Shown one piece after another: positions 3,294 to 45,491 of a DNA stretch of 64,000 nucleotides. The notes under the pieces were generated by a model. The model was not told the DNA's origin. It ran no database searches and saw only the letters and a list, made by a program, of their open reading frames with translations. The stretch comes from Candidatus Latescibacterota bacterium. GTDB lineage: Bacteria > Latescibacterota > UBA2968 > GCA-2709665. The DNA lies in contig CBDCOX010000002.1 in assembly GCA_965219995.1 (NCBI GenBank), positions 2,784,001 to 2,848,000 on the forward strand, given 5' to 3'. The position numbers were made by a program, and so were the translations under genes. Position 1 is the stretch's first letter. Every line of letters begins with the position of its first letter.

Positions 3294-5396
3294 ATGAAAC
3301 CGCGGAAGATACAGCGAATCGCCTTCCTGCAGGACTACAGGAACCGGCCGGAGTCGCTTGTGGACGAGATTCCGGAGGTGGCCGGCCTGGGTTACCACGA
3401 GGTTACCGTGGCGGCAGTGATCGGCCACGAAGAGGCGGTAGCGGAGGTGGCCGGAAAAGCGGAGGAATATGGCCTCGAGGTCTCCACGTTCACCGGATTC
3501 ATGAAATACGCCTACCAGCATCTGGACGAGCATCCCGAGCAGAAGGCCGTGTTCAGCAAGGATGCGGACCACGAGGAACTGGGAAACCTGCCGGCCGTGT
3601 GGGGGTGTCCGTATAACAGGGTGTTCCAGAAGCGGTACCTCGATTTCCTGGAAAGGCTGGCCGAGATACCGAATCTCACGGAAGTGTGGGTGAACGACGA
3701 AGCCTATTTCGGCAGGGAAATCGATCTTCTGGCGTGCTACTGCAAGACCTGCCAGGCGGACTGGGATGACGAAGTCGGCGGGAGGATCCCCATGCCGCCG
3801 TTCAGCGACATGGACGAGAAGGCGCGGCTGGTGACCTGGCGGTTCCGGCGCTGGAACGAAGTACACGGAAAAATGAAAACGGCCCTGAACCGGAATCGCC
3901 GGATCCGGGCGGTATTTCAGAGCGGCCCGCAGCCCTTCTGGGACATCAACCCCTGGATATGCGGTATGGACATCGACGGAATGGTCGAAGCCATCGACGG
4001 CCTCGCAGTCGACGCCTATTACACCTGCGTGCTGCCGGCGGTGGGCAGCGGCCTGTTCACACCGCCCGAGATTTTCCTGAGCGAGTGCTGTCGATTCATC
4101 CGGGGGATGACGCTGGGAGAGGACAAGGTGAGCGTGATGCTGGGGCAGGGGATGTCGCACCCTGAATTCCACAGGCCGCTGGACGAAAGGGACGGATGGT
4201 GGCAGGCCGTGGTTCCGCCGGCCCTGGGCGTGGATCGCGTGACGGCCTATACGTACCGCCTTCAGCGAGCGTCTCCCATGCACCGGACCTTCCAGGAGGC
4301 GTTTCGTCTGGACCCCCATTTCGAACGCACCGAGCCCGTTGTTTCCGTAGCCGTCGTGGACAGCCTGGAAACCCAGTGTTACGACGAGTCCTTACCCGCC
4401 AGGGGCCGCGAGAACTGGCGCATGAGCCGGATGTTCTCCATGGGACAGATGGCCGCCCACTACGGTCTGTCCCATGGGTATCTGCCCTCGTCGAAACTCG
4501 TCCCCGAACATCTGGAACGATATCCGGCGGTGGTGCTGCCCAATGTCTCCTGCCTGTCCACCGACCAAAGAGAAGCGCTCCGTGCGTATGTACAGGACGG
4601 CGGTACGCTGGTGGCGGCGGGGGAAACGGCGACCGGGGACGAAATGGGACGCCCTTCGGACCTGTCGTTTCTCAATGAAGTATTCGGAATTTCGTCGTGT
4701 ACACCCGGCGGGAGTTCCCGCATCTTTGCGGCCGTGAGCGACCACGCGGCGTTCGAAGACCTTCCATGGCCGGATGAGAAAACCGCGTGGGACCCGTGGA
4801 AGGGCGGCAACCGACCTGTGCTCGGGCTGGACCTGGCGGTGGACGTCACATCGGAAGGCGAAGCGGATGTGCTGGCGGTGTTCGAGGAAGCGGGATCCCC
4901 GACCTCGCGTCCCGCCGTCACATTGAAACGCTTCGGCAGGGGGAACGCCGTATTCCTGGCGGGCATCCCGTCTCGATGGATGGATCTCAGGCCGGCGGGC
5001 ACCACGGTTCTCAGCTTTTCCCGCCAGGTGCTGGCGCAGTTGATCCTGTCGCTGGTGGGAGAGAGGTTGCCTGTGGTCGCGAAGGGATTTCCACCACGGG
5101 TGCCGCTGCAGGAGGCCAGACCTCTGGATATTCGATGGAAGCCGACCGTGGAAATCATGCCCTCGGTGGGCGAAGACCTGATCCTGGTGACGGTGCCATC
5201 CTATTTCAGGGAGCCCGGCGCATTCCGGATCGAAGCGAGGCTGCCGGACGGCAAACAGTGCGCCGAAGTGAGGGAACTGGTGTCGGATCAGCCGGTGGCG
5301 GCAACGAGACGGGACGGGCGATCGGTGGAAATCGACGTCAACCTGACCACCGAGGATTTCCTGAAGGTATATGCATTCACCCTCGCCCCGGCCTAA
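3294..5396 (+). CDS. GH42-like TIM-barrel glycoside hydrolase with a C-terminal trimerization/class I GAT-like domain
   Basis: 700 aa; NDEA, CYCKTC Cys motif, LPNVSCLS...LRAYVQDGGTLVA; GGAGG RBS. Confidence 0.75.
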   Translation: MKPRKIQRIAFLQDYRNRPESLVDEIPEVAGLGYHEVTVAAVIGHEEAVAEVAGKAEEYGLEVSTFTGFMKYAYQHLDEHPEQKAVFSKDADHEELGNLPAVWGCPYNRVFQKRYLDFLERLAEIPNLTEVWVNDEAYFGREIDLLACYCKTCQADWDDEVGGRIPMPPFSDMDEKARLVTWRFRRWNEVHGKMKTALNRNRRIRAVFQSGPQPFWDINPWICGMDIDGMVEAIDGLAVDAYYTCVLPAVGSGLFTPPEIFLSECCRFIRGMTLGEDKVSVMLGQGMSHPEFHRPLDERDGWWQAVVPPALGVDRVTAYTYRLQRASPMHRTFQEAFRLDPHFERTEPVVSVAVVDSLETQCYDESLPARGRENWRMSRMFSMGQMAAHYGLSHGYLPSSKLVPEHLERYPAVVLPNVSCLSTDQREALRAYVQDGGTLVAAGETATGDEMGRPSDLSFLNEVFGISSCTPGGSSRIFAAVSDHAAFEDLPWPDEKTAWDPWKGGNRPVLGLDLAVDVTSEGEADVLAVFEEAGSPTSRPAVTLKRFGRGNAVFLAGIPSRWMDLRPAGTTVLSFSRQVLAQLILSLVGERLPVVAKGFPPRVPLQEARPLDIRWKPTVEIMPSVGEDLILVTVPSYFREPGAFRIEARLPDGKQCAEVRELVSDQPVAATRRDGRSVEIDVNLTTEDFLKVYAFTLAPA

Positions 5397-5443
5397 TCGG
5401 ACGGACGCGCCGACACCATTTTGTGCAACGTTAGCTATCGCAA

Positions 5444-5878
5444 TCAGGAACGATTGATTCGCGATCGGATGCAGGCGTCCACACCGTATTTTCCGGCGCC
5501 GACCAGCAGGAACATCACCGCGATAGCCAGGTAGAGAAGCGCCATCTCCTTCCTGCCGAACGGGTCTGCTGCGTGCACGCCGAACGCGGCCACCAGCATG
5601 GTGAATCCCATCAGCGCCGTGCCCGGCCGCGTCAGCAGTCCCAGCGCCAGCATCAGCCCGCCTCCGAACTCCCCGAACGCGGCCGCCCAGGCGAAGAACT
5701 CCGGAAGGGGAAATCCCAGCTTTGCCGTACCGGCCACCAGTCCGGGGGACGGCGGTATCTTCCCGATGCCGTGCCCGAATGCCATACTCAGCCCGGCAAT
5801 AACCCTCAGGATTGCCAGTCCCAGATTCGCCTTGTCGGACTCAATCTCCGCACCGCCAAACAACAGTTCCCTGTACAT
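5444..5878 (-). CDS. DoxX family membrane protein
   Basis: 144 aa, 4 TM; HGIGK, EFGGGLMLALGLLTRP and GAGKYGVD motifs. Confidence 0.9.
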   Translation of the reverse strand: MYRELLFGGAEIESDKANLGLAILRVIAGLSMAFGHGIGKIPPSPGLVAGTAKLGFPLPEFFAWAAAFGEFGGGLMLALGLLTRPGTALMGFTMLVAAFGVHAADPFGRKEMALLYLAIAVMFLLVGAGKYGVDACIRSRINRS

Positions 5879-6161
5879 ACGTGTTCTCCCGTTTTTCGAT
5901 TACGGTTAATCGTGGATGGCTTGTCCGGTCTCCCCAGGCTGCCAACCACCGCGCCGATCTTGTTGCTCTTTGCACCCCATAAGCTTACCTTACACCTGAA
6001 GTGACTTCCCCCAATGCATCCCCTTTTCAGATGCTCCAGGCGCAGTTGAGACCCACTCGATCTTCCAACCACAATACCGATAGTCAGTATCGTCAAAGAG
6101 ACGACGCGGTGCGGCTCAGTCTGCTGGGAACCGCCCGTAATTCGACGTCGACGACGATTCA

Positions 6162-6190
6162 AGTATAGTACATAACCCTTTGAAAAGCAA
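6162..6190 (-). promoter_or_regulatory. Putative sigma70 promoter towards doxX
   Basis: Minus strand TTGCTT-N17-TATACT. Confidence 0.5.
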
Positions 6191-6269
6191 GATCGGTCGA
6201 GTGCCGTTCCCTTGCCGGGCAAGGCGCCGCGTCAACTCGGCCTTTGTCAGCATAAAAGGAGAAAAGCGC

Positions 6270-7430
6270 ATGAAGATTACCGACGTGAAAGTCCTGCCCA
6301 TCGATCGATATCTCTTTGTCCAGGTGCATACCGATGAGGGGATCGTGGGGCTGGGAGAGTCGGGCGCCTGGGGCTACCTGGAAGCCTCCGGCGAGGTGGT
6401 CAAGAGCTTCAGGGAATACCTGATCGGAAAGGACCCCCTGCGCATCGAACACCACTGGCAGGTCCTGTACCGGTGTACGCACTTTCGGGGCGCCGCGATC
6501 ATGGGCGCCCTGAGCGCGGTGGACATCGCCCTCTGGGATATTGCGGGCAAACATTTCGGGGTGCCGTGCTACCAGCTTCTGGGCGGCAGGTGCCGGGACA
6601 AGGCACGGGTCTACGGCCACGTCATCGGGAGCACCAAGGAGGAGCTTTTGAGAGGCTGCGTGCAGGCCAGGGCGGAGGGATATACAGCCGTTGGCCACCT
6701 GACGCCCTTTCTGGATGAGTCACGGAATGTCCCCTATTACAAGACCCATACGGACAAGATTCAGGACGCGATTCAGACGGTGGCGGCGTACCGCGAGGCG
6801 GTCGGCGACGAGGTGGACCTGTGCATCGAGATCCACCGGCGGCTGGACCCGGCAGAAGCCATCGTGTTGGGCAGGGCTATCGAACCCTATCGCCCGTTTT
6901 TCTACGAGGATCCAATCCGGCCCGACAATCTGGACGCCATGGCCGAAGTCGCAAAGAAAATCGCGGTCCCCATCGCCACCGGCGAGCGAATCCACACGAT
7001 CTACGAATTCGAAATGCTTCTTACGCGCAACGCGGTCCAGTATGTACGACCGGACGTCTGCATGGCCGGCGGCATCACCCATTGCAAGAAGATCGCGGCC
7101 CTCGCCGAGGCGCACTACGTGGACGTGGTGCCGCACAATCCGCTCAGCCCGGTGAGCACGGCCGCCTGCGTCCAGCTCGCCGCGTGCATCCCGAATTTCG
7201 CACTGCAGGAATACCCGAGGGGTGAAGGCGAGCCGCCGAAGAGCGAAATCGTGTCGGGCACGCTCACGCTGGACGACGGATTCCTGATCATCCCCGATGC
7301 TCCGGGAATCGGCGTGGAACTCGCGGAAGGCGCCGCGGAGAAATACCCGTTCCTCTCGCACCGACCGTTGCTGGATGAGGGGATGATGGTCACCAGGCTG
7401 CACGTCGACGGGTCCGTGGTCGACCAGTAG
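6270..7430 (+). CDS. Galactonate dehydratase-like enzyme (mandelate racemase/enolase superfamily)
   Basis: SAVDIALWDIAGK, EIHRRL, FYEDPIRP, ATGERI, GGITHCKKIAALAEA and PHNPLSP motifs; AAGGAG RBS before ATG 6270. Confidence 0.9.
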   Translation: MKITDVKVLPIDRYLFVQVHTDEGIVGLGESGAWGYLEASGEVVKSFREYLIGKDPLRIEHHWQVLYRCTHFRGAAIMGALSAVDIALWDIAGKHFGVPCYQLLGGRCRDKARVYGHVIGSTKEELLRGCVQARAEGYTAVGHLTPFLDESRNVPYYKTHTDKIQDAIQTVAAYREAVGDEVDLCIEIHRRLDPAEAIVLGRAIEPYRPFFYEDPIRPDNLDAMAEVAKKIAVPIATGERIHTIYEFEMLLTRNAVQYVRPDVCMAGGITHCKKIAALAEAHYVDVVPHNPLSPVSTAACVQLAACIPNFALQEYPRGEGEPPKSEIVSGTLTLDDGFLIIPDAPGIGVELAEGAAEKYPFLSHRPLLDEGMMVTRLHVDGSVVDQ

Positions 7431-7513
7431 GTCGTCGCATCTGAACGAATGATCGGAGAACCGGTAATATCTCATCCCAAACGCGTGATATCTGAATCAC
7501 AGGAGGACTCACC

Positions 7514-8308
7514 ATGCTCGCGGGGATCTCAGACGAACAGTGGGCGCAGTTTGAGAATGAAGGGTACGTACGACTTGGAAAGGTGATGGACGACGACGAA
7601 CTGGCGGGCCTGCAGCGGCGCATAGACGACATCATGCTCGGCAACGTCAAGGTCCACGATCAGATGTTTATGCAGCTGGACAGCGAGACGGGCGACTATT
7701 CGGAGAAGCGGATCACAACGAGAGGGCACCAGGTATCGACGTTGAACTATCGAAAGATCCAGGACCTGGAGTTCGACCCGCTGTTCCTGTCCTACATTCA
7801 GAAACCGGTTTTCCGCGACATCTGCGCGAGGGCCTACGGTCCCGAGACGCCGATATCCTGCTATCGGGCCATGTTTATGAACAAGCCGGCGGGGAAGGGT
7901 ACAACACTACCCTGGCACCAGGACCGGTTCAGCATTCTCGACACGGATCCGATCGTAACCGTGTGGACGGCGCTGGATCGGGTGTCGGTTGAGAACGGCT
8001 GCGTAGGGATCGTGCCCGGGTCCCACCGGGGCACTTTCGAGCAGGACGACTCCGCCAGCTTCGCCTTTCTGACCGACGATCAGGCCACCGCCGTTCTGGA
8101 AAGGGAAGCGCATGAGTACCTGGAAATGGAGGCGGGGGAAGCGGCACTGTTACATAACTGGCTGCTCCACGGATCGGGCGTGAACCGGACCGACGCCTCC
8201 CGCCGCGGGTTCAGCTGCTGTTACATGGACGCCGCCACAAGGTCCGACCATGGGACCACCTTCTCAATCATCTTCGGCGAGGGCGCCCTGACCCCCGGAA
8301 CACTCTAA
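7514..8308 (+). CDS. Phytanoyl-CoA dioxygenase (PhyH) family Fe(II)/2-oxoglutarate dioxygenase
   Basis: WHQD, VWTALD, ENGC..VPGSH and LHGSGVNRT..RR motifs. Confidence 0.9.
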   Translation: MLAGISDEQWAQFENEGYVRLGKVMDDDELAGLQRRIDDIMLGNVKVHDQMFMQLDSETGDYSEKRITTRGHQVSTLNYRKIQDLEFDPLFLSYIQKPVFRDICARAYGPETPISCYRAMFMNKPAGKGTTLPWHQDRFSILDTDPIVTVWTALDRVSVENGCVGIVPGSHRGTFEQDDSASFAFLTDDQATAVLEREAHEYLEMEAGEAALLHNWLLHGSGVNRTDASRRGFSCCYMDAATRSDHGTTFSIIFGEGALTPGTL

Positions 8309-19475: not shown

Positions 19476-21188
19476 ATGAGAATCGGTATTCTGACACACA
19501 CTCCCGATCTTTCGGACTATGTCGCCGAGATCTTCGCGACCTGGGGGCTTGCCGCGTTCGACCGGATCGGCGAGGACCGGGTGGAGACCCTGGATCCGGA
19601 GACGAGCCCCGTACTGGTCTGCCCCGCAGGCGAAAGGGATGAACGTACGCAGGCGTCGCTGATCGGCTACGCGCGGCGCGGCGGCACCGTCGTGACGTTT
19701 TTGCCCGGAGACATACTCGCAGACGCCGCGGGGCTGGTTCGCGAAAGCGCCAGATCGGCGCCGCTGCGGCTGCGCCTCGTGCGATATCCGGCGGCCGGGG
19801 TTTCAGGAGAGGACTTCCCGGTTGTGGGAGACGCCGCGCATTACGCGGTACGTTCCGAAGCCGCGTCGGGTGTCGCTTATCTGTACAATCCCGACGCTTT
19901 CGAGGGGGAATCGGCGGGTGTCGTCGAAACCCCTGTTGGCGAGGGGCGCATCCTGGCCTTTGCCTTTGACCTGCCAGCGTGCGTATTCATCCTGCGGCAG
20001 GGCGATCCGGATCAGGTCGAGAGGGCCGTGGGCGGCAACGTGCGGGCCGACGCCATAGGCATCGACCTGGGTCCGGCCGACAGCGGCCTGATGCCGTTTG
20101 CCGATCTGCTGGCGCGGTGGCTGGTGGAACTGGTCTGCCGGTTCGTTCCCACGCCCGTCCCCCTGCTCTGGCACCTGCCTGGCGAGGCCGCCGCCCTTGT
20201 GCTTTATTCAGGAGACGAGGACGGGGCGGAGATTTCCGCGACGGAGCAGGAATTCCGGGATGTATCGGCGGCCGGCGCGCGCATGAGTCTCTACATCATT
20301 CCGATCGGGACGGATTCGACCGCCGAGGACGTCCAGCGGTACCGTCAGAATCACGACGTGGGTCCGCATCCGAATCTCCGGGCAATGGACGGCCGGTCGA
20401 TCGAGGACCGCGTCGCGGAATTCGAACGGCAGATCCGGCTGTTCGAAGAGATGTACGGTTTCAAGCCGACGAGCGTCCGCAACCACTGTCTTTCCTGGGC
20501 GGGATACCTCGAACTGGTGGAAGCGGAGGCGCGGCTGGGCATCCGGATGGACGCGAACTACCTGTGTTCGGCCTATATGCGGGACCGGTGCAGCGGACCG
20601 TACCACCTGAGAGGGGCGGCCATGCCCATGCGGTTCTGCCACCCGGACGGCCGCCTGGTTGACGTCATCCAGCAGCACACCCACCTTTCGGATGACGTCT
20701 GGTTCCAGGAAAGCGCCCCCAAATCCTTCCACTATTCCCCGGAGATGTACGGCGTACTCGCGGACCGCATCCTCAGCGACAGCGCCACCCGCTTCCACGT
20801 GCCGTACGGCGTGATCCTGCATCCCGGGAACTGGGTGCGATATTCCAGACCGCATGGCCTGGTCCTGCTGGAAAAGGCCGCGGAACGAGACGTTCCCGTG
20901 TGGTCTTACGACCAGTGGTGCGATTTCTGGCTCCTTCGGGACCGGTGGCGTATGGAGAGCATCTCCTGGCAGGACCATACGCTGAAATTCGCGGTCACGG
21001 GGCCGCCGGACGACGGGAATCTGCGCTGGTTGATTCCCTGCGCGTACAACGGCAGAATGCTTGAAGAAGTGTCGGTAAACGGTGTACCGGTACCAGTTAA
21101 CGCCGTCATCCGGTACGGGCAGCGCGTCATTCTGGCGTCGCCCGGCGCGGGCACGGAACATTGCGAGATAGAAGCGGCATACCACTGA
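19476..21188 (+). CDS. Polysaccharide deacetylase-like (NodB-type fold) protein with an N-terminal GAT-like domain
   Basis: SGDED, HDVGPHP, SVRNH and ILHP motifs. Confidence 0.65.
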   Translation: MRIGILTHTPDLSDYVAEIFATWGLAAFDRIGEDRVETLDPETSPVLVCPAGERDERTQASLIGYARRGGTVVTFLPGDILADAAGLVRESARSAPLRLRLVRYPAAGVSGEDFPVVGDAAHYAVRSEAASGVAYLYNPDAFEGESAGVVETPVGEGRILAFAFDLPACVFILRQGDPDQVERAVGGNVRADAIGIDLGPADSGLMPFADLLARWLVELVCRFVPTPVPLLWHLPGEAAALVLYSGDEDGAEISATEQEFRDVSAAGARMSLYIIPIGTDSTAEDVQRYRQNHDVGPHPNLRAMDGRSIEDRVAEFERQIRLFEEMYGFKPTSVRNHCLSWAGYLELVEAEARLGIRMDANYLCSAYMRDRCSGPYHLRGAAMPMRFCHPDGRLVDVIQQHTHLSDDVWFQESAPKSFHYSPEMYGVLADRILSDSATRFHVPYGVILHPGNWVRYSRPHGLVLLEKAAERDVPVWSYDQWCDFWLLRDRWRMESISWQDHTLKFAVTGPPDDGNLRWLIPCAYNGRMLEEVSVNGVPVPVNAVIRYGQRVILASPGAGTEHCEIEAAYH

Positions 21189-21268
21189 CAAGCAGCGACG
21201 CGGACTCAGGCCCACCGCGAGGAGGGTTTGCGACGAAGCAGAATACCGCCGTGTGAAGGAGGTGCAGG

Positions 21269-21910
21269 ATGCAGAAGCTGGTCTTCCTGGGCATTGGATC
21301 CAACAACTCGGACATTCTGGACGCCGTACTGGAAATCAATGCCGTGAAGCCGACCTATGACGTGCTGGGATACGTGACGCGGGACGGCAATCCCCTGAAG
21401 AAGGGCGGTCTGAAACACATGGGCGATTTCGACATGGTCCGTACCCTGCCGGAGGACGTGCAGATCACCGGGTTTACGTTCGGCCCGGGGAGTTACCATC
21501 ACTGGCCGGGTACGGTGGCGGGGCTGGGCCTGTCGCGGGACCGGTTCGCCACCATTGTCCATCCCCACGCGTTCGTTTCGCCGCAGAGTACGGTCGGAAT
21601 GGGGTCGGTTGTCCTGGCGGGGACGACGGTGGGCGCGTTCGTAGCCATCGGCGACCACGTGATTATCCTGCAGAACGTGGGACTGTCGCACGATGACGTG
21701 ATCGAGGATTATTCCTGCCTGGCGGTGGGGGTGAGCTTTTCGGGAAGCGTACGGGTGGGTCGGAACTGTTTCCTGGGAACGAACTCGACGATCATCGGCG
21801 CAACGATCGGCGAGGGAAGCATGGTGGGCGCCGGCGCGCTGATCCGCCACGACGTGCCGGCGGGTGAGGTCTGGGTGGGCAATCCGGGAAGGTTCTTGAG
21901 AAAGGTGTGA
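21269..21910 (+). CDS. NeuD/PglD family sugar O-/N-acetyltransferase (hexapeptide repeat)
   Basis: TIVHPHA, SHDDVI and GAGALIRHDVP...VGNP motifs. Confidence 0.9.
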   Translation: MQKLVFLGIGSNNSDILDAVLEINAVKPTYDVLGYVTRDGNPLKKGGLKHMGDFDMVRTLPEDVQITGFTFGPGSYHHWPGTVAGLGLSRDRFATIVHPHAFVSPQSTVGMGSVVLAGTTVGAFVAIGDHVIILQNVGLSHDDVIEDYSCLAVGVSFSGSVRVGRNCFLGTNSTIIGATIGEGSMVGAGALIRHDVPAGEVWVGNPGRFLRKV

Positions 21911-21917
21911 CGGCACC

Positions 21918-22583
21918 TCACCATCGCCAGACGCGGTTAACGGGTTTCTCGCCGATCACAATATTGAAATTCGCGATTAATTCTCCAATTTCCGATCCGG
22001 GCAGCGGCTTGAACGGAACTGCCAGCAGATCGTGCGAAGCACGGCCGGACCTCCGGAATATGGAGTCCCTCTGGTTGTCAGGGTTGCCCTTTACGTACAT
22101 CTGCGTCGTCAGAACACGGCGGCCGCTCCGGTTAATCGCAAAATGGATGTGCGCAGCCCGTGCCCCCGAATACCTGACAGGCTTGATCGTCCGAAAGCGG
22201 TATTCCCCCGTGGACCCGGTTTCGAATCGGCCGAAACCCTGAAAGTTCCGGTCCCGCCTGTTTCTCCCCCGGGCTTCGGTATGCAAATAGACGCCGTTAC
22301 TGTCCACCTGCCAGATCTCTACAACGGCATTCTTAACGGGCTTCCCGCCTATATCGACGACGCGCCCGGTCAGATGCGTGATTTCTCCCACGGCCGGCGT
22401 TATCGCGTCGTTAATGATCAGAAGATCGTTATCGACGTCCAGCGGCAGCCGGTCCGGATAGAAGGGACCCTCGGTCTGCCACGGAGTTCGCGCGAGTTGC
22501 TCGGCAAACGCCCCCGGCGTTACAAAAACCACGGCGCCCAACGCGCCCGCCTGGCACAGAAAACGCCTGCGATCAATCGCCAT
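21918..22583 (-). CDS. Intradiol ring-cleavage dioxygenase (protocatechuate 3,4-dioxygenase-like) with Tat signal
   Basis: DRRRFL Tat motif; EGPFYP, VEIWQ.D.NGVY, FRTIKP..Y and RAAHIH iron-ligand motifs. Confidence 0.9.
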   Translation of the reverse strand: MAIDRRRFLCQAGALGAVVFVTPGAFAEQLARTPWQTEGPFYPDRLPLDVDNDLLIINDAITPAVGEITHLTGRVVDIGGKPVKNAVVEIWQVDSNGVYLHTEARGRNRRDRNFQGFGRFETGSTGEYRFRTIKPVRYSGARAAHIHFAINRSGRRVLTTQMYVKGNPDNQRDSIFRRSGRASHDLLAVPFKPLPGSEIGELIANFNIVIGEKPVNRVWRW

Positions 22584-35365: not shown

Positions 35366-36226
35366 TCAATGACCGTGCACTTCTTCCATTCCGTGAACGG
35401 CGCTGGATTCAACGAAATAGAGGGCGTAGGCCAGACCGATTCCCACAAGAAGCGCTGCAATGAGTTTGCCGCGGTCGTGGCTGTGGAAATGGATCTCGGG
35501 CAGCAGATCGCTCAAAGCAATGCACAGGAACGCGCCGGCGGCAAATGCAAGCACATAGCCGACGACCGAGCCATCGTCCGGGCCGAGAAGTCCCACGCCC
35601 CAGAAACTGGCAAGAGCGACAATCGGACACAGTGAAGCAAACGCGACGTTCGCCGCCGCGCGCGCGCGCGCGCCGTGGCCCGCGAACTTCATCATGCCGA
35701 TGATGGAATACGCATCCAGCGGCTTGTGAAGCACGATGGCGAGGAAAACACCGAGCGCGGGCAGCGCCCCTCCGTCTTCATGCGGCGAACTCACCCGCAT
35801 GCTGGTGCCCAGGGCGACGCCTTCTGTTACGGTATGTACCCCGAGGCCCATGGCGACCCCGAACATGCTTCGCGTCTGCGCGCCTGAATGTCCGTGGTCG
35901 TGATGGTCGTACAGTTCGCCCGCCTCGGTACTGAAGTCGTGCTGATGGAAATGGAAGATGCGCAGCAGGAATATCATCAGGATCATGCCGAAGACCACCC
36001 ACGCCACGGCTCTTTCAACATTTCCGGGTCCGCTGATCCGTTCCAGACTGTGAGGGAAGAGATGGTACATGGCGATTCCCAGGATAAAACCCGCCACGAG
36101 GCTCATCAGGACCTGTATCCGCGTATGGGTCATGGATCCCAGAACGGCCAGTCTCCCGCCGATGAAGGAAACGGCAAAGATACCGAGTGAATATCCGAAA
36201 ATGATCAATAACCCGTCGTAATCCAC
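35366..36226 (-). CDS. ZIP family divalent metal transporter
   Basis: His-rich loop HFHQH..DHHDHGH; HTVTEGVALG, LHKPLD and SDLLPEIH motifs. Confidence 0.92.
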   Translation of the reverse strand: MDYDGLLIIFGYSLGIFAVSFIGGRLAVLGSMTHTRIQVLMSLVAGFILGIAMYHLFPHSLERISGPGNVERAVAWVVFGMILMIFLLRIFHFHQHDFSTEAGELYDHHDHGHSGAQTRSMFGVAMGLGVHTVTEGVALGTSMRVSSPHEDGGALPALGVFLAIVLHKPLDAYSIIGMMKFAGHGARARAAANVAFASLCPIVALASFWGVGLLGPDDGSVVGYVLAFAAGAFLCIALSDLLPEIHFHSHDRGKLIAALLVGIGLAYALYFVESSAVHGMEEVHGH

Positions 36227-36459
36227 AATAACCTCACCTCAATTTTCCCGGGGAAGCCGCACTGTCCTCTCCGGCACGTGTGCCCGCGCACGTGCCCTGG
36301 CGGCGACTCAATTTGGCCGGATGCCAGACCGGAAACTCCCTCAAGTAACCCCGTGGTCGCACAAACCGTTTCTTCAATAGGAATTGTTCGGGGGCAACCC
36401 ATGATTTCCGCCCCGGATTGCCCCCGAAGAATCCATGTCCCGCGACGACCGAAAGGATT

Positions 36460-36948
36460 TCAGAAGAACCACATCAGAAGTATAATGGCGCTCAGCCCAC
36501 CCAGCATGAACCCCCCTATGCTGACCGCGCCCGACGCCAGTGAATAGTCGGCGATACGAAACGTCTGATCGCCCAGAGTGAAGAGTACCTCGGTACGGTT
36601 GATCTCCCCGTCGACGAATCGTTTCAGTGCCTCTTCCGCGCTGTGGGCTTCTTTCACCGAGACCATGGCCACCAGAATCATCGTCGCCGCGGACGCGAGG
36701 GTTCCGATCGCAAAAATTAGCAGTGTCGTGAGGGCCACCCAGTGGTAGGCCGCGTCCTCGGTTCCCGAAGGAGAACTCATGAATCCGATAATCAGCGCGG
36801 CGCCGCCCGCGTTGCCCAGCAGCAACAGGCGGGCCGACTCGGTAATCAGCCTGAACATCGTACCGCGCCGCATGTGGACGACCTTGTAGAGTTCGCGCAA
36901 CCACTCTTCGCCGATTTCTTCAACGGTAAACTCATCCACCTTTTTCAA
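36460..36948 (-). CDS. Hypothetical membrane protein (about 3 TM)
   Basis: 162 aa; LLLGNAGGAALIIG helix; starts 3 nt after the upstream stop. Confidence 0.7.
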   Translation of the reverse strand: MKKVDEFTVEEIGEEWLRELYKVVHMRRGTMFRLITESARLLLLGNAGGAALIIGFMSSPSGTEDAAYHWVALTTLLIFAIGTLASAATMILVAMVSVKEAHSAEEALKRFVDGEINRTEVLFTLGDQTFRIADYSLASGAVSIGGFMLGGLSAIILLMWFF

Positions 36949-36951
36949 GGG

Positions 36952-38103
36952 TCAATCTCCTCCGAGATCGATCAGCCGGACGTAGCGCGAACCTGAGTTG
37001 GTTCCGGGCTCGAACGCGAGCTTCCAATCGTCGATTGCAACCGGTCCCGACGTCAATGCCTGTTCCAGGAAGTTCTCCCGCGTCAACCTGTCGCCCATGC
37101 GCCCCAGCACCTCAACGACGAAGCGGCCGAGAATATATCCTTCGAGCGAGACCTCGTTGATGCCGTAACTCCCGTTCCCCGCCTGTTGCCTTTCCGCCGC
37201 CCCCATGGCGCGATGGAAATTGCGCACAACCTGCATGTTCGTATCTTCCGCATCGGGCATCACTTCGGAGACCAGGATTCTGTCGTTCGGCGCGTCGATT
37301 CTCTTCTTCAACTCGTATGACAGGACGAATGACAGGTTGGCCATGATGTATCTGTAGCCCAGGGAGTGCGCCAGGTTGATGATTTCAGCGTTGGAAGCAT
37401 AGGCGCCCACGATCATGATGGCTTCCAGGTCCGCCTTGGCCAGGGCGAACAGACTTGCCTGTACTGCGTGTGTATTCCTCGAAAAGGCAGTCTTCCCCAG
37501 AATGGGAATCCCCATCCCGTCGAGCACCGACTTATAGTTCCTGAGGACGGAGCGCCCGAAAGCGTCGTCCTGATAGATAATGCCGAACCGCTTCTTGCCG
37601 CGCTTCCTCAGGATGTGGTTCACCAGAACGCGGGTCTCGTCCAGATAACCGGCTCTGAGGTTTACGACGTTGGGAAACCGCCTGGCGTTGCGCAGAAACG
37701 AGGCGCCCGTAAAGGGACCCACAAAGGGAATCGTCGCCGTCTTCAGCACCGGCGCAATGCGTTTCGCCGTGGGTGTACCCACACCGCCGATGACGGCGAA
37801 CACGTCGTTTTCGGCTGCGAAACGTTCCGCGTTGGCGGCCGCCAGTTCCGGCTCGTACGCGTCGTCCAGGGAAATCAGCCTGAGAATTCTGCCGTTGACG
37901 CCGCCGCGGCGGTTCGCCTCGTGCAAGGCCGCGCGAATGCCTGCCCGATAGTTGAATCCCAACTGCCTGTTCGGCCCGGAGAAACACGCGCTTTGACCGA
38001 AGACAATCGTCGTATCGCTGACACCTTGCGCCGCGAGGGACGTCGCGACAGGCAGCAGCGCGAGCCAGAATACCAATAGCCCACTGACGATGTGTGCCGC
38101 CAT
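36952..38103 (-). CDS. Type I periplasmic binding protein (LivJ/LivK-like)
   Basis: Signal peptide; GQSACFSGP, NRRGGVNGR, DDAYEP, GGVGTPT and YQDDAFG motifs. Confidence 0.88.
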   Translation of the reverse strand: MAAHIVSGLLVFWLALLPVATSLAAQGVSDTTIVFGQSACFSGPNRQLGFNYRAGIRAALHEANRRGGVNGRILRLISLDDAYEPELAAANAERFAAENDVFAVIGGVGTPTAKRIAPVLKTATIPFVGPFTGASFLRNARRFPNVVNLRAGYLDETRVLVNHILRKRGKKRFGIIYQDDAFGRSVLRNYKSVLDGMGIPILGKTAFSRNTHAVQASLFALAKADLEAIMIVGAYASNAEIINLAHSLGYRYIMANLSFVLSYELKKRIDAPNDRILVSEVMPDAEDTNMQVVRNFHRAMGAAERQQAGNGSYGINEVSLEGYILGRFVVEVLGRMGDRLTRENFLEQALTSGPVAIDDWKLAFEPGTNSGSRYVRLIDLGGD

Positions 38104-38133
38104 TCGCTACCCTCTTCCCGAGGCGTGTCACAT

Positions 38134-39570
38134 CTACTTCGACGTGGCGCCACCCTCCCCCTTCGTTCCCGATTTGCCGGCAGCCACGTCCTGCTTCCCC
38201 TGCTTGACGGCGGCCTTCGCTTTCTTTTTCTTGCCCTGCCCCGGGGCGACCTTCGTTTTCTTCACGGATTTGACGCCTGTCATTGCCTGCGTCGTCGACC
38301 TTGCATCCTCCTCAGGGAGCACCTCCACCATCGGCTTCTCCTGCTGCTGCCGGCTGAACCGTTTGCCTCGCACAACGTGGCTATGAGAGAATATCGAAGG
38401 TGTGTCGAAAATGAGCGACCGGGGGTTGGCCACGAGCAGGTGATCGCGTTCCGCGCGCACTCTGTGAAACTGGCCGTCGAGCGTGAGTCTGTCCTCATCG
38501 ACGTTTTCGATCTTATGTATATCGGGCATTTGCGTTGATGATAACGCCATCCTGCCGGCCGCCGCGCCACCTCCGGCGGGCGGTTCCCCCAGCGCCAGGT
38601 CCGCAGGCGTGAATCCGTCTCCCACGCCGTCGATCATGTTGATATCGATGGCAGACTGATTGGCCGGGTTGACCGCCGCCAGGCTTGCCTCCGAGAAAAT
38701 CTGGCGCATTCGATCCCAGTAGCGCGTGATTCGAACGTGCGAGGGTTGCTTCCGGTATTCCGACAGCAGTGCGGTAAACGCTCCGGCGCTGCTTCCGGCC
38801 TGCACAATCCGCTCTTGCGCCCTCGCCTTTGCCTCCAGCACCAGCGCCTCGGCCTGTCCGCGGCTGCGGGCGATCAACTGCTCCTTCTGGCGGTTGGCGT
38901 CACTGACCGCCTTTGCACGTTCCGCGAACGCGTCGCTGACGTCTCGAAACGCGGCGATGGTTTCCTCAATCGGGCGCACGTCGACGATGTCGAGCGAAAC
39001 AAGTTCGATCCCGATCTCGCGGTTCTCGAGCCAGCCGGTAACCCGTTCGAACAACCGGCTTTGAATTATGTTTCGATTCGAGGTGAGAATCAGGTCGATG
39101 AAATTCTCGCCCAGGACGTCGATCAACTCTTCCCTGGTGTATGCGGTCAACATCGCAGTGGGATCGGAGGAAGTGAACAGGAAGTTTTTGAGATTGTCGA
39201 TCCGGTACTGAAGGGCCACGTCCACTTCGAGCAGATTCACGTCTCCGGACAATATCGTGAAGTTGACCTTGCTTCCCTCCCGGCTGGCCACCTGGAACCG
39301 GGTGACCCGCTTGACCTTGCGGAGGTGTACCTTGTCGATGAAGGGGATGCAATACCGTATTCCGGGGCTGACGTTTTCTTCGACCAACCTGCCGAATCGG
39401 AGCACAACGCCGCGTTCTTCCTTCTTGACAATGTAGAACCCGCTGGCCAGGATGCATACGACCGAGGCGACCGCCGTCCAGACCAGGATTCGCCGCTGGT
39501 GTTTCGAGTAGTAATCGAACACGGCGTAGATGATCCGCGTACTTTGCGGCAATGACGTCTGTTCACTCAT
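38134..39570 (-). CDS. HflK-like SPFH/band-7 protein with a long C-terminal extension
   Basis: ERGVVLRFG, LSGDVNLLEVDVALQYRI, DVRP...AAFRDV and ARSRGQAE motifs. Confidence 0.85.
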   Translation of the reverse strand: MSEQTSLPQSTRIIYAVFDYYSKHQRRILVWTAVASVVCILASGFYIVKKEERGVVLRFGRLVEENVSPGIRYCIPFIDKVHLRKVKRVTRFQVASREGSKVNFTILSGDVNLLEVDVALQYRIDNLKNFLFTSSDPTAMLTAYTREELIDVLGENFIDLILTSNRNIIQSRLFERVTGWLENREIGIELVSLDIVDVRPIEETIAAFRDVSDAFAERAKAVSDANRQKEQLIARSRGQAEALVLEAKARAQERIVQAGSSAGAFTALLSEYRKQPSHVRITRYWDRMRQIFSEASLAAVNPANQSAIDINMIDGVGDGFTPADLALGEPPAGGGAAAGRMALSSTQMPDIHKIENVDEDRLTLDGQFHRVRAERDHLLVANPRSLIFDTPSIFSHSHVVRGKRFSRQQQEKPMVEVLPEEDARSTTQAMTGVKSVKKTKVAPGQGKKKKAKAAVKQGKQDVAAGKSGTKGEGGATSK

Positions 39571-39588
39571 TTCAGTCGAACTCTCGGA

Positions 39589-40479
39589 TTATCGGGGTGA
39601 GGACCTGCTGTTGAGGTATTTGAAGAGCTCGTTGTCGGCCGGCAGCATCAACGTGGTGTTCCGGTCGATGATCAGATCGTAGCTGTCCAGAGCGCGGATG
39701 AAGCTGTAGAAACCCGGATCCTGCCGGTACGCCTTGCCCAGCAGCGCCATCGCCTCGGCCTCGGCCTTACCGAGAATGGCCGTTGCCTCCGCGTGGGCGT
39801 CCGCCAGCAGCTTTTCGTGTTCGTTAATGGCCAGGGCCTCGATGCGCAGGGCCATTTCCTCGCCCTCGCTGCGGTATCGGGCGGCAATGCGTGCCCGTTC
39901 CGCGATCATTCGCTGAATGACGCTCGGGCGGTTCTCCGTCGGCAGCGTGTATTCGACGATGCCTGCTTCGATCACGTCGATCCCGTAGCTTTCTCTCGCA
40001 ATTGGCGCGATTCGAGCGTGTATTTCCCGCGAAGCCTCGTTCAGGTCTTCGTGTTCCAGTCCCAGCCCGATGAAGGCGTCCAGAGATTTGTTGCTGATGA
40101 TGATCCCGCTGCTGGACAGATAGAGATCCTGCAATCGCTCGACGGCGTTCTTGCCGGTGCGGATCGCCTCCACGAAGAGAATCGGGTCCACGGTCTTCCA
40201 GAGCAGGTATCCGTCGACGCGAACGCTTTTCTGATCGTCGGTGATCAACTCGTGGGGGACGTTCGTCAGCGTATGGATGCGTCGATCCACCTTATAAATT
40301 CTGGAAATCGGGCGGGGCCACTTCACGTGCAATCCCGGTTGCCTCACCGGCGGCGAGATCCTGCCGAAGTGTGTCAATACGCCCTGTTGGGTTTCGTGGA
40401 TAATGTAGATGCTGTCGTAGACGATTGCGCCGACAACCACGGCGAGGGTCGCGGTAATCGTGGCTTTCTTGAGCGTCAT
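39589..40479 (-). CDS. HflC-like SPFH/band-7 protein
   Basis: QPGLHVKWP, LITDDQK, RMIAERARIAARYRSEGEE and DPGFYSFIRALDSY motifs. Confidence 0.88.
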   Translation of the reverse strand: MTLKKATITATLAVVVGAIVYDSIYIIHETQQGVLTHFGRISPPVRQPGLHVKWPRPISRIYKVDRRIHTLTNVPHELITDDQKSVRVDGYLLWKTVDPILFVEAIRTGKNAVERLQDLYLSSSGIIISNKSLDAFIGLGLEHEDLNEASREIHARIAPIARESYGIDVIEAGIVEYTLPTENRPSVIQRMIAERARIAARYRSEGEEMALRIEALAINEHEKLLADAHAEATAILGKAEAEAMALLGKAYRQDPGFYSFIRALDSYDLIIDRNTTLMLPADNELFKYLNSRSSPR

Positions 40480-40599
40480 TGCCTTTCCTCGTCAATTAGG
40501 GCGTGCGGGGCGCCCGGTGTCAACGGAATGTCTCTCTATGCTTTCCGGCCGGCATGCGGCTCCGCTGCAAAATGACCGGCCGGCAATGCTTCTTTGAGA

Positions 40600-42912
40600 T
40601 CACGGTTTCGACTTCGGAACGGCCTTCTTTCCGTGCCTGGGAGACGCGCCGTGGCTGGCGCCTGCGGAGTTTCTCTTCCACAGCGCGACCTTTTCGAGAC
40701 TCTTCTTGTTTGGAACGATAATCTTGGGATTGCCGGACAGCGCCGTTTCCAGTTTTTCCCGCCAAAGCATGTTCCGCAAAACGCCCGGCGCGCTTCTGAC
40801 GGCTTTGGCTACCGTTGAAATGGCATCGGCCTCGGCGGCTGAGGTCTTCACTTTCCGATAGGCCTCGCCGTCGGCCTGCTGCACCTCCCACGCCGCGTTT
40901 CCGTGCGCCTGTGGCACCAGCGATACCAGGAAACGCTGAGCGTTTACGATGATGCGCTCCCTGTCCTCCTGCGCGCTGGAAACATCCCTGAAAGCGCTCA
41001 TGGTCTCCGCCACGGGGCTGACGTCCAGCAGGTTGATCTTGACGACTTCAACGGTTTTCAGCACCGGATTCGTGAAATGTACGTCCACGTCGAAGGAATC
41101 GGTGAGGTGCTCTTCAAGCGTTTCGCGATGCACGTTCAGCAGTTTCTCGAGGTCCCTCGCGGAAATGAAGGAGCGGATATGGGCCTTCATAACGTCGGCG
41201 ATGACCTTCTGTGGATCCCCGGTCCGATAATGGTAATTATACGGGTCCTTGACCCGATACTGGACGTTGACGGTCAGGGAAAGCAGGTTGAGGTCGCCCG
41301 AGACGTACTCTTCCGGCGTTTCGCACAGGATGGACTTCACTTCCCGTACCGGCCATTTGTCGACCTTGACGAAGGGCCAGGGGGCGAGATAGCTCAAGCC
41401 CGGCTGGATGTCACGCCAGTAGACTTCGCCCAAAAGCCTGCCGTAGCCTACCGAATTGGGAGGAATGGTTGTGAATCCGCTGGCCAGGAAAAGGACGAGC
41501 AGCAGCACCCAGAGCATCTTGCCCATGGGTGTTGCGGGAGTAATGATCCCCCTGAAGCTCCGGTTGCGGGTCAGACGCTCCCAGGCCTGGCGCCAGGGCT
41601 TCGACAGGGGCCGGATGTTCAACAGCAGGTCTTCCCACCCGCTGCGGAGCGCGCCCGCACGGAAACGCCAGACGATGAGCGCGATGAGAATGAGGCCTGA
41701 CCCCCACTGAAGGATCTGTATCGTCGGGGATTCCGAGGGGCCAAGGTACACCGGTATCGTAAAACCGGTGGCAATCAGCAGGGCGTCGATCAGAATACCG
41801 AGCGCCACCGTGACGGCGATGACCGCCGCGACGTATATGGTTGCGAAACGAGCGCCGAACTGGCTGACGATAATCGCGATCGTACCCGTATTGGTGGCCG
41901 GCCCGGTCATCAGAAAAATCAGCGCGGCGCCAGGGCTGAATCCCTTGGCGACGAGGGCCGCCGCGATCGGCGTGCTCGCGGATGCGCAGATATAGAGAGG
42001 GACGCCGACCAGCACCATCACGGGATAGGAGACCCAGCGGGCGTATTCGTTCGTCATCAGATCGCCCGGTATCACCAGAAAGAGCACGCCGCCCAGGGCC
42101 ACGCCAACCAGCAGCGCGAAGAGGATGTCGTCCGCAATCTCCACGAAACCGTAGTGAAAGACGTGCTTCACCAGCTTTTTGAAGTCCAGCGCCTGATCGT
42201 CTTCCGAGGGCGAGGCCTTTTCCGCCGCGGACGCCTCCACCGCGTCGCGGTAAAAGGCAGGCTTCACCCAGGAAAGGGACTTCCATCGCCCGGCCATGGT
42301 CGCAACGTTCTTCAGCCATTGCACGAAAAGGCCCTTCAGCCGCGAAAAGCTGACGTAGCAGTCGTCAGTTTCGGGAATGAGGGGTTCGTGCGAACCGTGG
42401 TCATGGTCGTGATCGTGGTCGTGCCCGTGATCATGGTCATGGTCATGCCCATGTCCGTCGTGGCTGTGGTCCGACGCGGTTTCTTCAGGGTCGTTGCGTA
42501 TCAGGCCGATACAGAAGATGCCGGCGACGACTGCCGTGATGAAACTGATGACCGGCCGGACGACCGCGGCGACGAATCCGAAGAAGGCGTTTGTGACCAG
42601 GATCGAGTCCGCCCCCGTCTCCGGAGCGGTTATCAGGAAAGACATGCAGGACGAACGGGACGCACCCTTCCGCCGCATCTCGGCGACCACGGGGACAACG
42701 GAACAACTGCACAAAGGCACGGGTACGCCGACGGCCGAACTCACCGCAACGGATTTCAGGCTGTCGTCCTTGAGCCACCGGAGGATGGCCTCACGGGAGA
42801 TGAATACATGGATGACGCCCGACAGGAACAGGCCCAGCAGCAGCATGGGCGCCAGCAACAGGGACGACATCCAGAGAAAGTCGAAAAAACTGATCAGGGT
42901 CTGCTGTACCAC
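40600..42912 (-). CDS. Fusion of a DUF318/SO_0444-type metal permease (His-rich loop) with an HflK-like SPFH domain
   Basis: PLCSCSVVP, APETGADS, (HD)n tract, YICASASTP and GPATN in the N-terminal part; VSGDLNLL..VQYRV and AFRDVSSAQED in the C-terminal part. Confidence 0.85.
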   Translation of the reverse strand: MVQQTLISFFDFLWMSSLLLAPMLLLGLFLSGVIHVFISREAILRWLKDDSLKSVAVSSAVGVPVPLCSCSVVPVVAEMRRKGASRSSCMSFLITAPETGADSILVTNAFFGFVAAVVRPVISFITAVVAGIFCIGLIRNDPEETASDHSHDGHGHDHDHDHGHDHDHDHDHGSHEPLIPETDDCYVSFSRLKGLFVQWLKNVATMAGRWKSLSWVKPAFYRDAVEASAAEKASPSEDDQALDFKKLVKHVFHYGFVEIADDILFALLVGVALGGVLFLVIPGDLMTNEYARWVSYPVMVLVGVPLYICASASTPIAAALVAKGFSPGAALIFLMTGPATNTGTIAIIVSQFGARFATIYVAAVIAVTVALGILIDALLIATGFTIPVYLGPSESPTIQILQWGSGLILIALIVWRFRAGALRSGWEDLLLNIRPLSKPWRQAWERLTRNRSFRGIITPATPMGKMLWVLLLVLFLASGFTTIPPNSVGYGRLLGEVYWRDIQPGLSYLAPWPFVKVDKWPVREVKSILCETPEEYVSGDLNLLSLTVNVQYRVKDPYNYHYRTGDPQKVIADVMKAHIRSFISARDLEKLLNVHRETLEEHLTDSFDVDVHFTNPVLKTVEVVKINLLDVSPVAETMSAFRDVSSAQEDRERIIVNAQRFLVSLVPQAHGNAAWEVQQADGEAYRKVKTSAAEADAISTVAKAVRSAPGVLRNMLWREKLETALSGNPKIIVPNKKSLEKVALWKRNSAGASHGASPRHGKKAVPKSKP

Positions 42913-43037
42913 GCAATCGCCTCCACCGCATTGGGTGATGCAAGGGGACGCCTGGCAGGCGTTTCGGAAACCGGGAACGGGAGGCGCCGATCACAACGAC
43001 ACGCGAGCAGCTTCGTCGACAGGCCCGTTCACTGATG

Positions 43038-43068
43038 AAAAAGCCCGCTCCCCTTCAGGGAACAGGGC
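43038..43068 (-). terminator. Hairpin + U-tract at the 5' end of the permease leader (terminator or 5' stabiliser)
   Basis: Minus strand GCCCTGTTCCCT-GAA-GGGGAGCGGGC followed by TTTTT. Confidence 0.45.
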
Positions 43069-43070
43069 GG

Positions 43071-43101
43071 CAATAATAGTGATTATTGAATGTCAAGTCA
43101 A
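43071..43101 (-). promoter_or_regulatory. Sigma70 promoter overlapped by a Fur/Zur-like palindrome
   Basis: TTGACT-N17-TATTAT (43101-43073); perfect 7-4-7 inverted repeat CAATAAT-AGTG-ATTATTG at 43071-43088. Confidence 0.65.
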
Positions 43102-43168
43102 GGGCTACGTAGGTTATTATGTGCGTATTATTAATATAGTATATTTCGTCGCCGCTGCAAGGGAAGAT

Positions 43169-43360
43169 ATGCATATGGACGCACTCCGGTTTGTCAGGTC
43201 CGGCGGTCCATCGGCGGAAGGCCGCTCACGGTGTTATGCGACCATTCAGGCTGCCCTCGATGACCGGAGCGGGAGCGATACTCTGACATTGGCACAGGGT
43301 CCGTTTCACGGTCCGCCAGACACGGGGTCGCAGCCGGCCCGGCTCGTACTTCTGACATAG
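43169..43360 (+). pseudogene. Truncated N-terminal remnant of a right-handed beta-helix (pectin-lyase fold) gene
   Basis: YATIQAALD..GSDTLTLAQGPF cap motif, then runs into the antisense strand of the GNAT gene and stops after 63 aa. Confidence 0.45.
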
Positions 43361-45414: not shown

Positions 45415-45491
45415 TGGTGGGCGATACTGGATTCGAACCAGTGACCTCCTGCTTGTAAGGCAGGCGCTCTAACCGGCTGAGCTAACCGCCC
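45415..45491 (-). tRNA. tRNA-Val (anticodon TAC), CCA encoded
   Basis: GGGCGGTTAGCTCAGCCGGTTAGAGCG-CCTGC-CTTACAA-GCAGG-AGGTCACTGGTTCGAATCCAGTATCGCCCACCA. Confidence 0.97.

Follow-up and report, generated by a model that had tools for sequence, protein, structure and literature searches.

We analysed a stretch of 64,000 nucleotides from a Candidatus Latescibacterota bacterium (hereafter the window; C2:2784001-2848000 of a 5.44-Mb genome in two contigs), which carries a cluster of genes pairing a metal permease with SPFH proteins of the HflK/HflC type. Six intact open reading frames (ORFs) lie on the minus strand between 35366 and 42912 in the order A-B-C-D-E-F (coordinates without a contig name are window positions), with intergenic gaps of 120 (A/B), 18 (B/C), 30 (C/D), 3 (D/E), and 233 nucleotides (E/F). 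The genes are as follows.

40600-42912, minus strand: A, 770 amino acids; SO_0444/ArsP_1-type permease and HflK-like SPFH domain, joined by a basic linker and one transmembrane helix
39589-40479, minus strand: B, 296 amino acids; HflC-like SPFH protein
38134-39570, minus strand: C, 478 amino acids; HflK-like SPFH protein with an N-terminal STRxIYAxFD motif and a His-bearing C-terminal tail
36952-38103, minus strand: D, 383 amino acids; secreted type I (LivJ-fold) periplasmic binding protein
36460-36948, minus strand: E, 162 amino acids; three long helices, no family match, in each case the gene immediately following D
35366-36226, minus strand: F, 286 amino acids; ZIP-family transporter with a His-rich loop, a lineage-variable companion

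An earlier note, made from the letters of this DNA alone, had described six co-oriented minus-strand genes with this content, and the ORFs and their Pfam and NCBIfam matches agree with it. The His-rich tracts that it had reported in both transporters were likewise seen, in A (approximately residues 147-176) and in F.

Gene A joins two domains that are clearly recognizable in Pfam, namely ArsP_1 (residues 10-375, 153.7 bits) and Band_7 (residues 502-658, 49 bits); Band_7 is also present in B and C. The permease part passes the NCBIfam model NF033936, 'SO_0444 family Cu/Zn efflux transporter' (322.4 vs a cut-off of 300), with a match that spans residues 18-415 and model positions 6-349 of 351. 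Alignment of the fusions revealed an invariant PLCSCSVVP motif, a second repeat with ICASASTP, and a His/Asp-rich loop. The SPFH part scores below the cut-off of the HflK model TIGR01933 (133.9 vs 159.4), and residues 470-737 align by sequence to residues 87-347 of Escherichia coli HflK (7vhp_E, E = 1.2e-15). No solved structure was matched by the permease part in a search against solved structures. A hydrophobic segment precedes the SPFH domain of A, and N-terminal hydrophobic segments are found in B and C as well. A is the sole ArsP_1 gene of its genome.

The fusion is conserved. A was searched against 5.8 billion proteins, which gave 720 matches among 8000 scored candidates, and among the best 120, which were inspected (60-100% identity), 116 carried both PF03773 and PF01145. 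The few named sources were metagenome-assembled genomes labelled Gemmatimonadota, Latescibacteria, Opitutae, and Gammaproteobacteria. A Zip domain listed for one homologue, P0018, probably reflects its long His-rich loop, since this protein aligns with A end to end. Furthermore, metagenomes were scanned with 24 aligned fusions, which yielded 50 loci, 33 of them with the fused gene. Several near-duplicates occur among the loci; distinct sequences number 22 for B and 17 for E. Downstream sequence of 4.3 kb or more is available for 24 of the fused loci, and in every one of these B, C, D, and E follow on one strand and in the same order, at protein identities of 48-96%, and stops and starts of consecutive genes overlap or abut in many of them. 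The synteny of DUF318-Band_7 fusions with HflC-like and HflK-like genes, which the earlier note had put forward for a neighbourhood search, is therefore constant in this sample. Genes B to E were found in none of the ten loci with an unfused permease (430-480 amino acids, at least 2.3 kb downstream). ZIP, which the earlier note had counted as part of the unit, turned out to be a variable add-on, being present in 8 of the 24 cassette loci only (on the cassette strand in five, on the other strand in three).

The same picture was obtained among 41 relatives, in which E is present in 16/16 genomes with a full fused gene and in 0/13 in which that gene is truncated or the permease unfused; in a single fragmented genome, E occurs with no fusion detected. 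Across the phylum sample E is patchy (28/168 genomes). Truncated fusions without E occur in 5 of the 15 genomes of the genus (G001, G008, G010, G012, and G013), where the match to the fused gene extends no further than residues 453-629, with stop codons within it or following it; in a third of the genus, the cassette has been deleted or is in decay. Since E tracks the full fusion, the spread is patchy, and truncated fusions lack E, the core of the cluster is a five-gene accessory cassette, A-E, that is gained and lost as a unit. In one metagenome locus (L052) the cassette lies between genes for a TrwC-type relaxase and an IS66 transposase (4512-7697 and 20413-21999). These flanks, together with sequence identities of 60-70% across phylum labels, suggest that the cassette has spread horizontally. 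A tblastn search of a plasmid collection with A gave no match at E <= 1e-20. E was not found in 401 sampled Gammaproteobacteria, a result that does not show absence.

The SPFH genes of the cassette are an extra set beside the housekeeping pair. The genome holds six Band_7 genes: three in the cluster, two adjacent canonical ones, and one long flotillin-like gene (C2:2.205 Mb). Whether a separate canonical hflKC locus exists had been posed as a check in the earlier note; the adjacent hflK/hflC pair at C2:1.336 Mb is such a locus, and it scores higher (HflK 278.2 bits, HflC 217.5 bits) than B (HflC model TIGR01932, 157.4 vs a cut-off of 134.4) and C (HflK model TIGR01933, 164.7 vs a cut-off of 159.4, barely passed). 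C is 31% identical to canonical HflK, and B is 32% identical to canonical HflC; the SPFH domain of A shares 28% identity with canonical HflK and 24% with C. The cassette proteins are distant paralogues of the canonical pair. Beyond the HflK core, the alignment of C shows a conserved tail in which H352, H369, and H396 are invariant and H377 is nearly so. Neither ftsH nor hflX is in the window, as previously noted; the single ftsH was placed at C2:435512 and hflX at C2:5080618, far from the cassette.

Fusions of the same kind exist in two further transporter families. The SPFH domain of A (residues 455-770) was searched against 1.84 billion cluster representatives, which gave 3530 matches at E <= 0.001, and the best 150 were inspected. 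Of these, 64 are at least 490 amino acids long with the SPFH match at the C-terminal end, and N-terminal to it Pfam placed ArsP_1 in 34, the membrane domain of a cation diffusion facilitator (CDF; approximately 195 amino acids) in 18, a P-type ATPase in 11, and nothing in one. All four ATPase fusions tested were of the heavy-metal P1B type (TIGR01525, 526-611 bits), and the HflK model cut-off was passed by three of the four ATPase fusions and by four of four CDF fusions. A search for the CDF-SPFH fusion in 168 genomes of the same phylum matched only canonical HflK. ATPase-HflK fusions were not found in 401 Pseudomonadota at E <= 1e-150, a threshold too strict for the result to be informative. 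We found no description in the literature of fusions between DUF318 and Band 7 or between SPFH and cation diffusion facilitator domains, and none, judged by titles and abstracts, of an SPFH/HflK-permease fusion linked with zinc.

D matches Peripla_BP_6 in Pfam (153.3 bits) and has a Sec-type signal peptide. Among solved structures it comes closest to 4kv7_A (E = 2.3e-42), a 'probable Leu/Ile/Val-binding protein' that is uncharacterised, and its alignment shows an ordinary LivJ-like set of conserved residues; D resembles amino-acid binders rather than metal binders. Genes for an ABC permease or ATPase were found neither in the window cassette nor between A and E in the 24 loci. A complex prediction of D with residues 40-420 of C scored 0.00 with the verdict 'no answer', which is uninformative either way. 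For E, no family was matched in Pfam or NCBIfam. Its structural model consists of three long helices (mean pLDDT 71.9); a fold search against the PDB gave no match at E <= 0.001, and one against the Atlas returned unnamed clusters only. Two parts of E are conserved, an acidic N-terminal helix (EExGEEWLRELYKV) and a loop (KEAHGAExxLKxFVDG), and by the positive-inside rule we predict both to be cytoplasmic. As in the cassette, SPFH proteins and small multi-helix membrane partners are encoded together in stomatin/NfeD-type pairs. E matches no NfeD model and has neither a soluble C-terminal domain nor a fold match. F scores 73.4 against the Pfam Zip model (gathering score 35.1) but only 31.2 against ZupT NF003243 (252), so that it would be a ZIP protein but no ZupT equivalog. 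A second ZIP-family gene lies elsewhere in the genome (C2:4232270-4233094).

The flanks of 17 distinct cassette loci were annotated. In four of them (L037, L039, L043, and L048) znuA, znuB, or znuC adjoins the cassette, and in L037 the cassette stands between znuA and znuC-znuB on one strand. In seven others (L029, L030, L032, L033, L038, L050, and L054) it adjoins parts of heavy-metal RND pumps, namely an AcrB-type protein, a CusB-type barrel-sandwich protein, and an outer-membrane factor. In addition, L038 has a CDF gene, L055 a gene for an HMA-domain P1B ATPase, and L048 ScsC; the flanks of L027, L031, and L056 contain nothing metal-related. The eight ZIP-bearing cassettes are the seven RND-adjacent ones and L055, and the four znu-adjacent cassettes are without ZIP. 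Close unfused permeases adjoin TonB-dependent receptors (L007 and L058), Nramp and ZIP (L062), or ZIP (L074). The znuABC and heavy-metal RND neighbours of the cassette bear out the link to metal homeostasis that had been proposed for this operon. As a separate observation, sterol-methyltransferase-like, GPP34-like, and cytochrome P450 genes, a trio unusual for bacteria, recur beside the permease or the cassette (L007, 10948-14057; L029, 17074-19791; L043, 16745-17386; L052, 19250-19906; L058, 12885-14876).

Upstream of A, the following features were recognized.

43073-43101, minus strand: promoter-like site TTGACT-17-TATTAT, matching at 10 of 12 positions
43071-43088, unstranded: perfect 7-4-7 inverted repeat CAATAAT-CACT-ATTATTG overlapping the -10, a candidate operator
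43044-43066, minus strand: terminator-like hairpin and T-run at the 5' end of an approximately 155-nucleotide leader

The number of promoter-like sites in the region (4) is close to that in shuffles (3.6 +/- 2.3), and the single site is not significant by this count; its -35 and -10 are conserved in position in the genus relatives L019-L027. In the spacer of these relatives a different palindrome, of the TGATAGTCAGTATCA type, lies at the same place, and two relatives have no such repeat. The TGATAGTCAGTATCA-type palindrome has one to four differences from the Fur-type 7-1-7 consensus. The leader hairpin and its T-run are kept in some relatives and deleted in others, and shuffled sequences fold as well as the leader does (z = -0.13). 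Rfam gave no riboswitch or leader family at gathering score in the window, and none at E <= 1 in 42880-43200. The genome has two Fur-family genes, one of them directly after znuA. A strong 10-4-10 Zur-type box precedes znuC in its znuC-znuB-znuA-zur operon, and two more copies of the box occur, one preceding a 788-amino-acid ORF that directly follows zur and one close to the second Fur paralogue (Zur-type boxes at C2:4159829, 4163194, and 2927294, with 0, 2, and 3 mismatches). No operator common to the znu and cassette promoters was seen by eye in L037, L039, L043, and L048.

The runs that contain the stretch are mostly from sponge and marine metagenomes. Contigs from relatives at 90-96% identity in two marine RNA libraries cover 23 and 22 of 30 bins and bridge A/B (40048-40905) and B/C (39431-39969 and 39539-39836); since such libraries can contain DNA, these contigs hint only weakly at co-transcription of A, B, and C. 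The bins without contigs include 42956-43200, from which no conclusion was drawn. The neighbours of the cluster in the window are a kinase-fold gene, a GNAT gene, and an epimerase gene, and the sole Rfam match at gathering score in the window is a tRNA gene (45418-45491, minus strand). Genome-wide, the best other match to the operator type of the genus relatives' cassette promoters is the near-perfect palindrome CGATAGTCAGTATCG (6078-6092). It is intergenic, with a DoxX gene on one side (minus strand, 5444-5878) and an enolase-superfamily/PhyH pair on the other (plus strand, 6180-8308). A regulon built on these operators was rejected, no metal gene having been found with it.

A close counterpart of the cassette is the HflK/HflC-FtsH complex of E. 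coli (7vhp, 7wi3, 9cz1/9cz2), in which HflK-type and HflC-type SPFH proteins alternate; as in the cassette, these proteins have an N-terminal membrane helix and an SPFH domain predicted or known to face the periplasm. The cassette differs in having three paralogues rather than two, with one fused to a permease, in the presence of a separate canonical pair in the genome with ftsH and hflX not nearby, in its extra obligate genes D and E, and in the longer His-bearing tail of C. The permease part of A is like SO_0444 of Shewanella oneidensis in passing the family cut-off, in its paired-cysteine motif, and in its two-repeat ArsP_1 architecture. According to PMC3219624, SO_0444 is needed for growth under ZnSO4 or CuCl2 stress, has a ZntR-like regulator as operon partner, and is annotated, with complementation, as a Cu/Zn efflux protein; the efflux label of the family derives from mutant fitness in Shewanella. 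A member of the family in Nitratiruptor is described as induced by Cd and Cu (PMC10092412). SO_0444 stands alone beside its ZntR-like regulator, whereas A is fused to SPFH and has no adjacent MerR-type regulator.

A published parallel exists in Pseudomonas aeruginosa. In PMC4542158, PA2434, hmtA (PA2435), and PA2437-2439 are up 5.6-14.4-fold in a znuA mutant, with a weak predicted Zur site, and PA2437-2439 are annotated 'HflC family', 'HflC', and 'HflK family'. PA2438 and PA2439 proteins are raised under Zn depletion (PMC11761036), the PA2439 promoter binds Zur (PMC4542158, PMC11761036, PMC8531726), HmtA is described as an importer in PMC4542158 and PMC8531726, and PMC9431628 lists PA2437-2439 in the Zur regulon as FtsH modulators. 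We found no mechanistic study of PA2437-2439 in the literature, where they figure in gene lists. Like the window cassette, the PA2434-PA2439 locus, as these sources present it, unites three HflK/C-family genes with a transition-metal transporter and is linked with zinc homeostasis; its transporter is a separate P1B ATPase rather than a fused ArsP_1 permease. By analogy, the ATPase-HflK fusions suggest the same partnership as hmtA with PA2437-2439.

We consider a dedicated, transporter-holding SPFH ring, serving as a metal-homeostasis device, to be the best explanation, at somewhat better than an even chance, because of the fusion, the five-gene synteny, the separate hflKC locus, and the occurrence of such fusions in three pump families. 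A, B, and C would build a ring of the HflK/HflC type in the inner membrane, facing the periplasm and distinct from the housekeeping HflKC-FtsH complex. Through its HflK-like subunit A, the ring would be covalently tethered to a permease for transition metals, with zinc the most likely substrate and copper a possible one. D, with its secreted binding-protein fold, and the small membrane protein E would be obligate companions of the ring, and ZIP, znuABC, or heavy-metal RND pumps would be exchangeable neighbours. The unit may be transcribed from one promoter overlapped by the palindromic operator.

Several points weigh against this explanation. We infer, rather than observe, the co-assembly of A, B, and C, the exclusion of FtsH from the ring, the metal, and the regulation; of the earlier proposal of an SPFH set around a metal permease, the conserved covalent fusion, the fixed synteny, and the extra set therefore stand, and the three-chain assembly has the lesser status of a prediction. 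The relatives and loci are not independent counts. B and C lie over the HflC/HflK equivalog cut-offs, as ordinary FtsH modulators would. The neighbours of the cassette are mixed, with importers in some loci and exporters in others, and the alignment of D shows no His/Cys cluster and no evident metal-binding residues. The cassette promoter matches the genome's own Zur box at best with 6 of 20 mismatches and in another register, and a matrix built from the genus operators found no other metal gene genome-wide. The promoter and overlapping palindrome that the earlier note had described are both present; the window sequence CAATAAT-CACT-ATTATTG is not conserved across the genus and mismatches the Zur box. 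From these observations repressor control of the cassette is a fair deduction, the Fur-family character given to the palindrome is unproven, and Zur control is unsupported in this genome.

The strongest competitor, in line with the earlier note, is metal uptake under shortage, in which D would hand its substrate to the permease and ZIP would import alongside within an SPFH microdomain. Binding proteins normally serve importers. The position of the cassette between znuA and znuC-znuB in L037 and beside znu in L039, L043, and L048, the ZIP gene in the operon here and in 8/24 loci, and the unfused permeases next to TonB-dependent receptors, Nramp and ZIP, or ZIP all point this way, as does the P. 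aeruginosa locus, which is Zur-bound, induced by zinc depletion, and accompanied by a described importer, HmtA. Set against them are a permease that passes the SO_0444 efflux model, whose founder is reported to protect against Zn and Cu, a homologue reported as induced by excess Cd and Cu, fusions of the same SPFH type to pumps of the CDF and P1B families, normally exporters, RND efflux parts at 7/17 loci, an operator that mismatches the genome's own Zur box, and a binding protein that resembles amino-acid binders. We regard this explanation as unlikely. The uptake role assigned by the earlier note is accordingly not established, given a permease in a Cu/Zn efflux family and an SPFH type also fused to CDF and P1B-ATPase. 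Its claim of novelty needs similar trimming: the Zur-bound three-HflK/C and metal-ATPase locus of P. aeruginosa is already in print as gene lists.

Still less probable, in our view, is that these genes are simply a second HflK/HflC set of the ordinary, FtsH-modulating kind, with the fusion bringing the permease to FtsH for turnover or quality control. The equivalog scores of B and C, and the HflK cut-off passed by 3/4 P1B and 4/4 CDF fusions, are what such a set would be expected to show; PMC11761036 and PMC9431628 read PA2437-2439 as FtsH modulators, and a single FtsH could serve both SPFH sets. Nevertheless, the genome already has a canonical pair with much better scores, the SPFH part of A does not reach the HflK cut-off, and neither ftsH nor hflX is anywhere near the cassette. 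D and E, moreover, are constant members of the cassette, and neither takes part in HflKC-FtsH as it is known. That the genes are chance neighbours or a decaying remnant without joint function is very improbable: the truncated fusions without E in 5/15 genomes of the genus and the patchy spread of E could be read in this sense, but gene order and strand are fixed in 24/24 loci at 48-96% protein identity, stops and starts overlap or abut in many loci, and the reading frames in the window are intact.

Granting a dedicated ring that holds the transporter, the direction of transport divides the evidence. Export from the cytoplasm into the ring-covered periplasm comes close to an even chance on the behaviour of the SO_0444, CDF, and P1B pump families, and import under zinc shortage is a substantial possibility, short of even, in view of the znuABC, ZIP, and TonB-receptor genes nearby and of the parallel in P. 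aeruginosa; some other direction or role is improbable. A speculative and doubtful proposal would reconcile family behaviour, which is that of export, with neighbours and P. aeruginosa data that speak of zinc shortage. In it the ring would be a periplasmic metal chamber, and tethered pumps of the SO_0444, CDF, and P1B types would release scarce zinc or copper beneath its dome. D, and perhaps the His-bearing tail of C, would receive the metal before it could leak through porins, and the ring would act as an extracytoplasmic compartment in which metal is stored or handed over. If true, this would explain why importers neighbour the cassette in some genomes and periplasmic efflux pumps in others.

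The function of bacterial SPFH rings is largely open, and FtsH is their sole well-understood client. The conserved natural covalent fusion described here names another SPFH client, a metal transporter, and the partnership recurs in three transporter families. Fusion A is a direct biochemical handle on what the ring holds. The finding also offers a new reading of PA2437-2439 beside hmtA, which have long been listed, without explanation, in the response of P. aeruginosa to zinc starvation. Our results suggest that this arrangement is widespread but unstudied, and that the clients of such rings can be metal transporters as well as the FtsH protease. If it is true that the ring controls or confines metal transport, it would represent a new layer of bacterial metal homeostasis.

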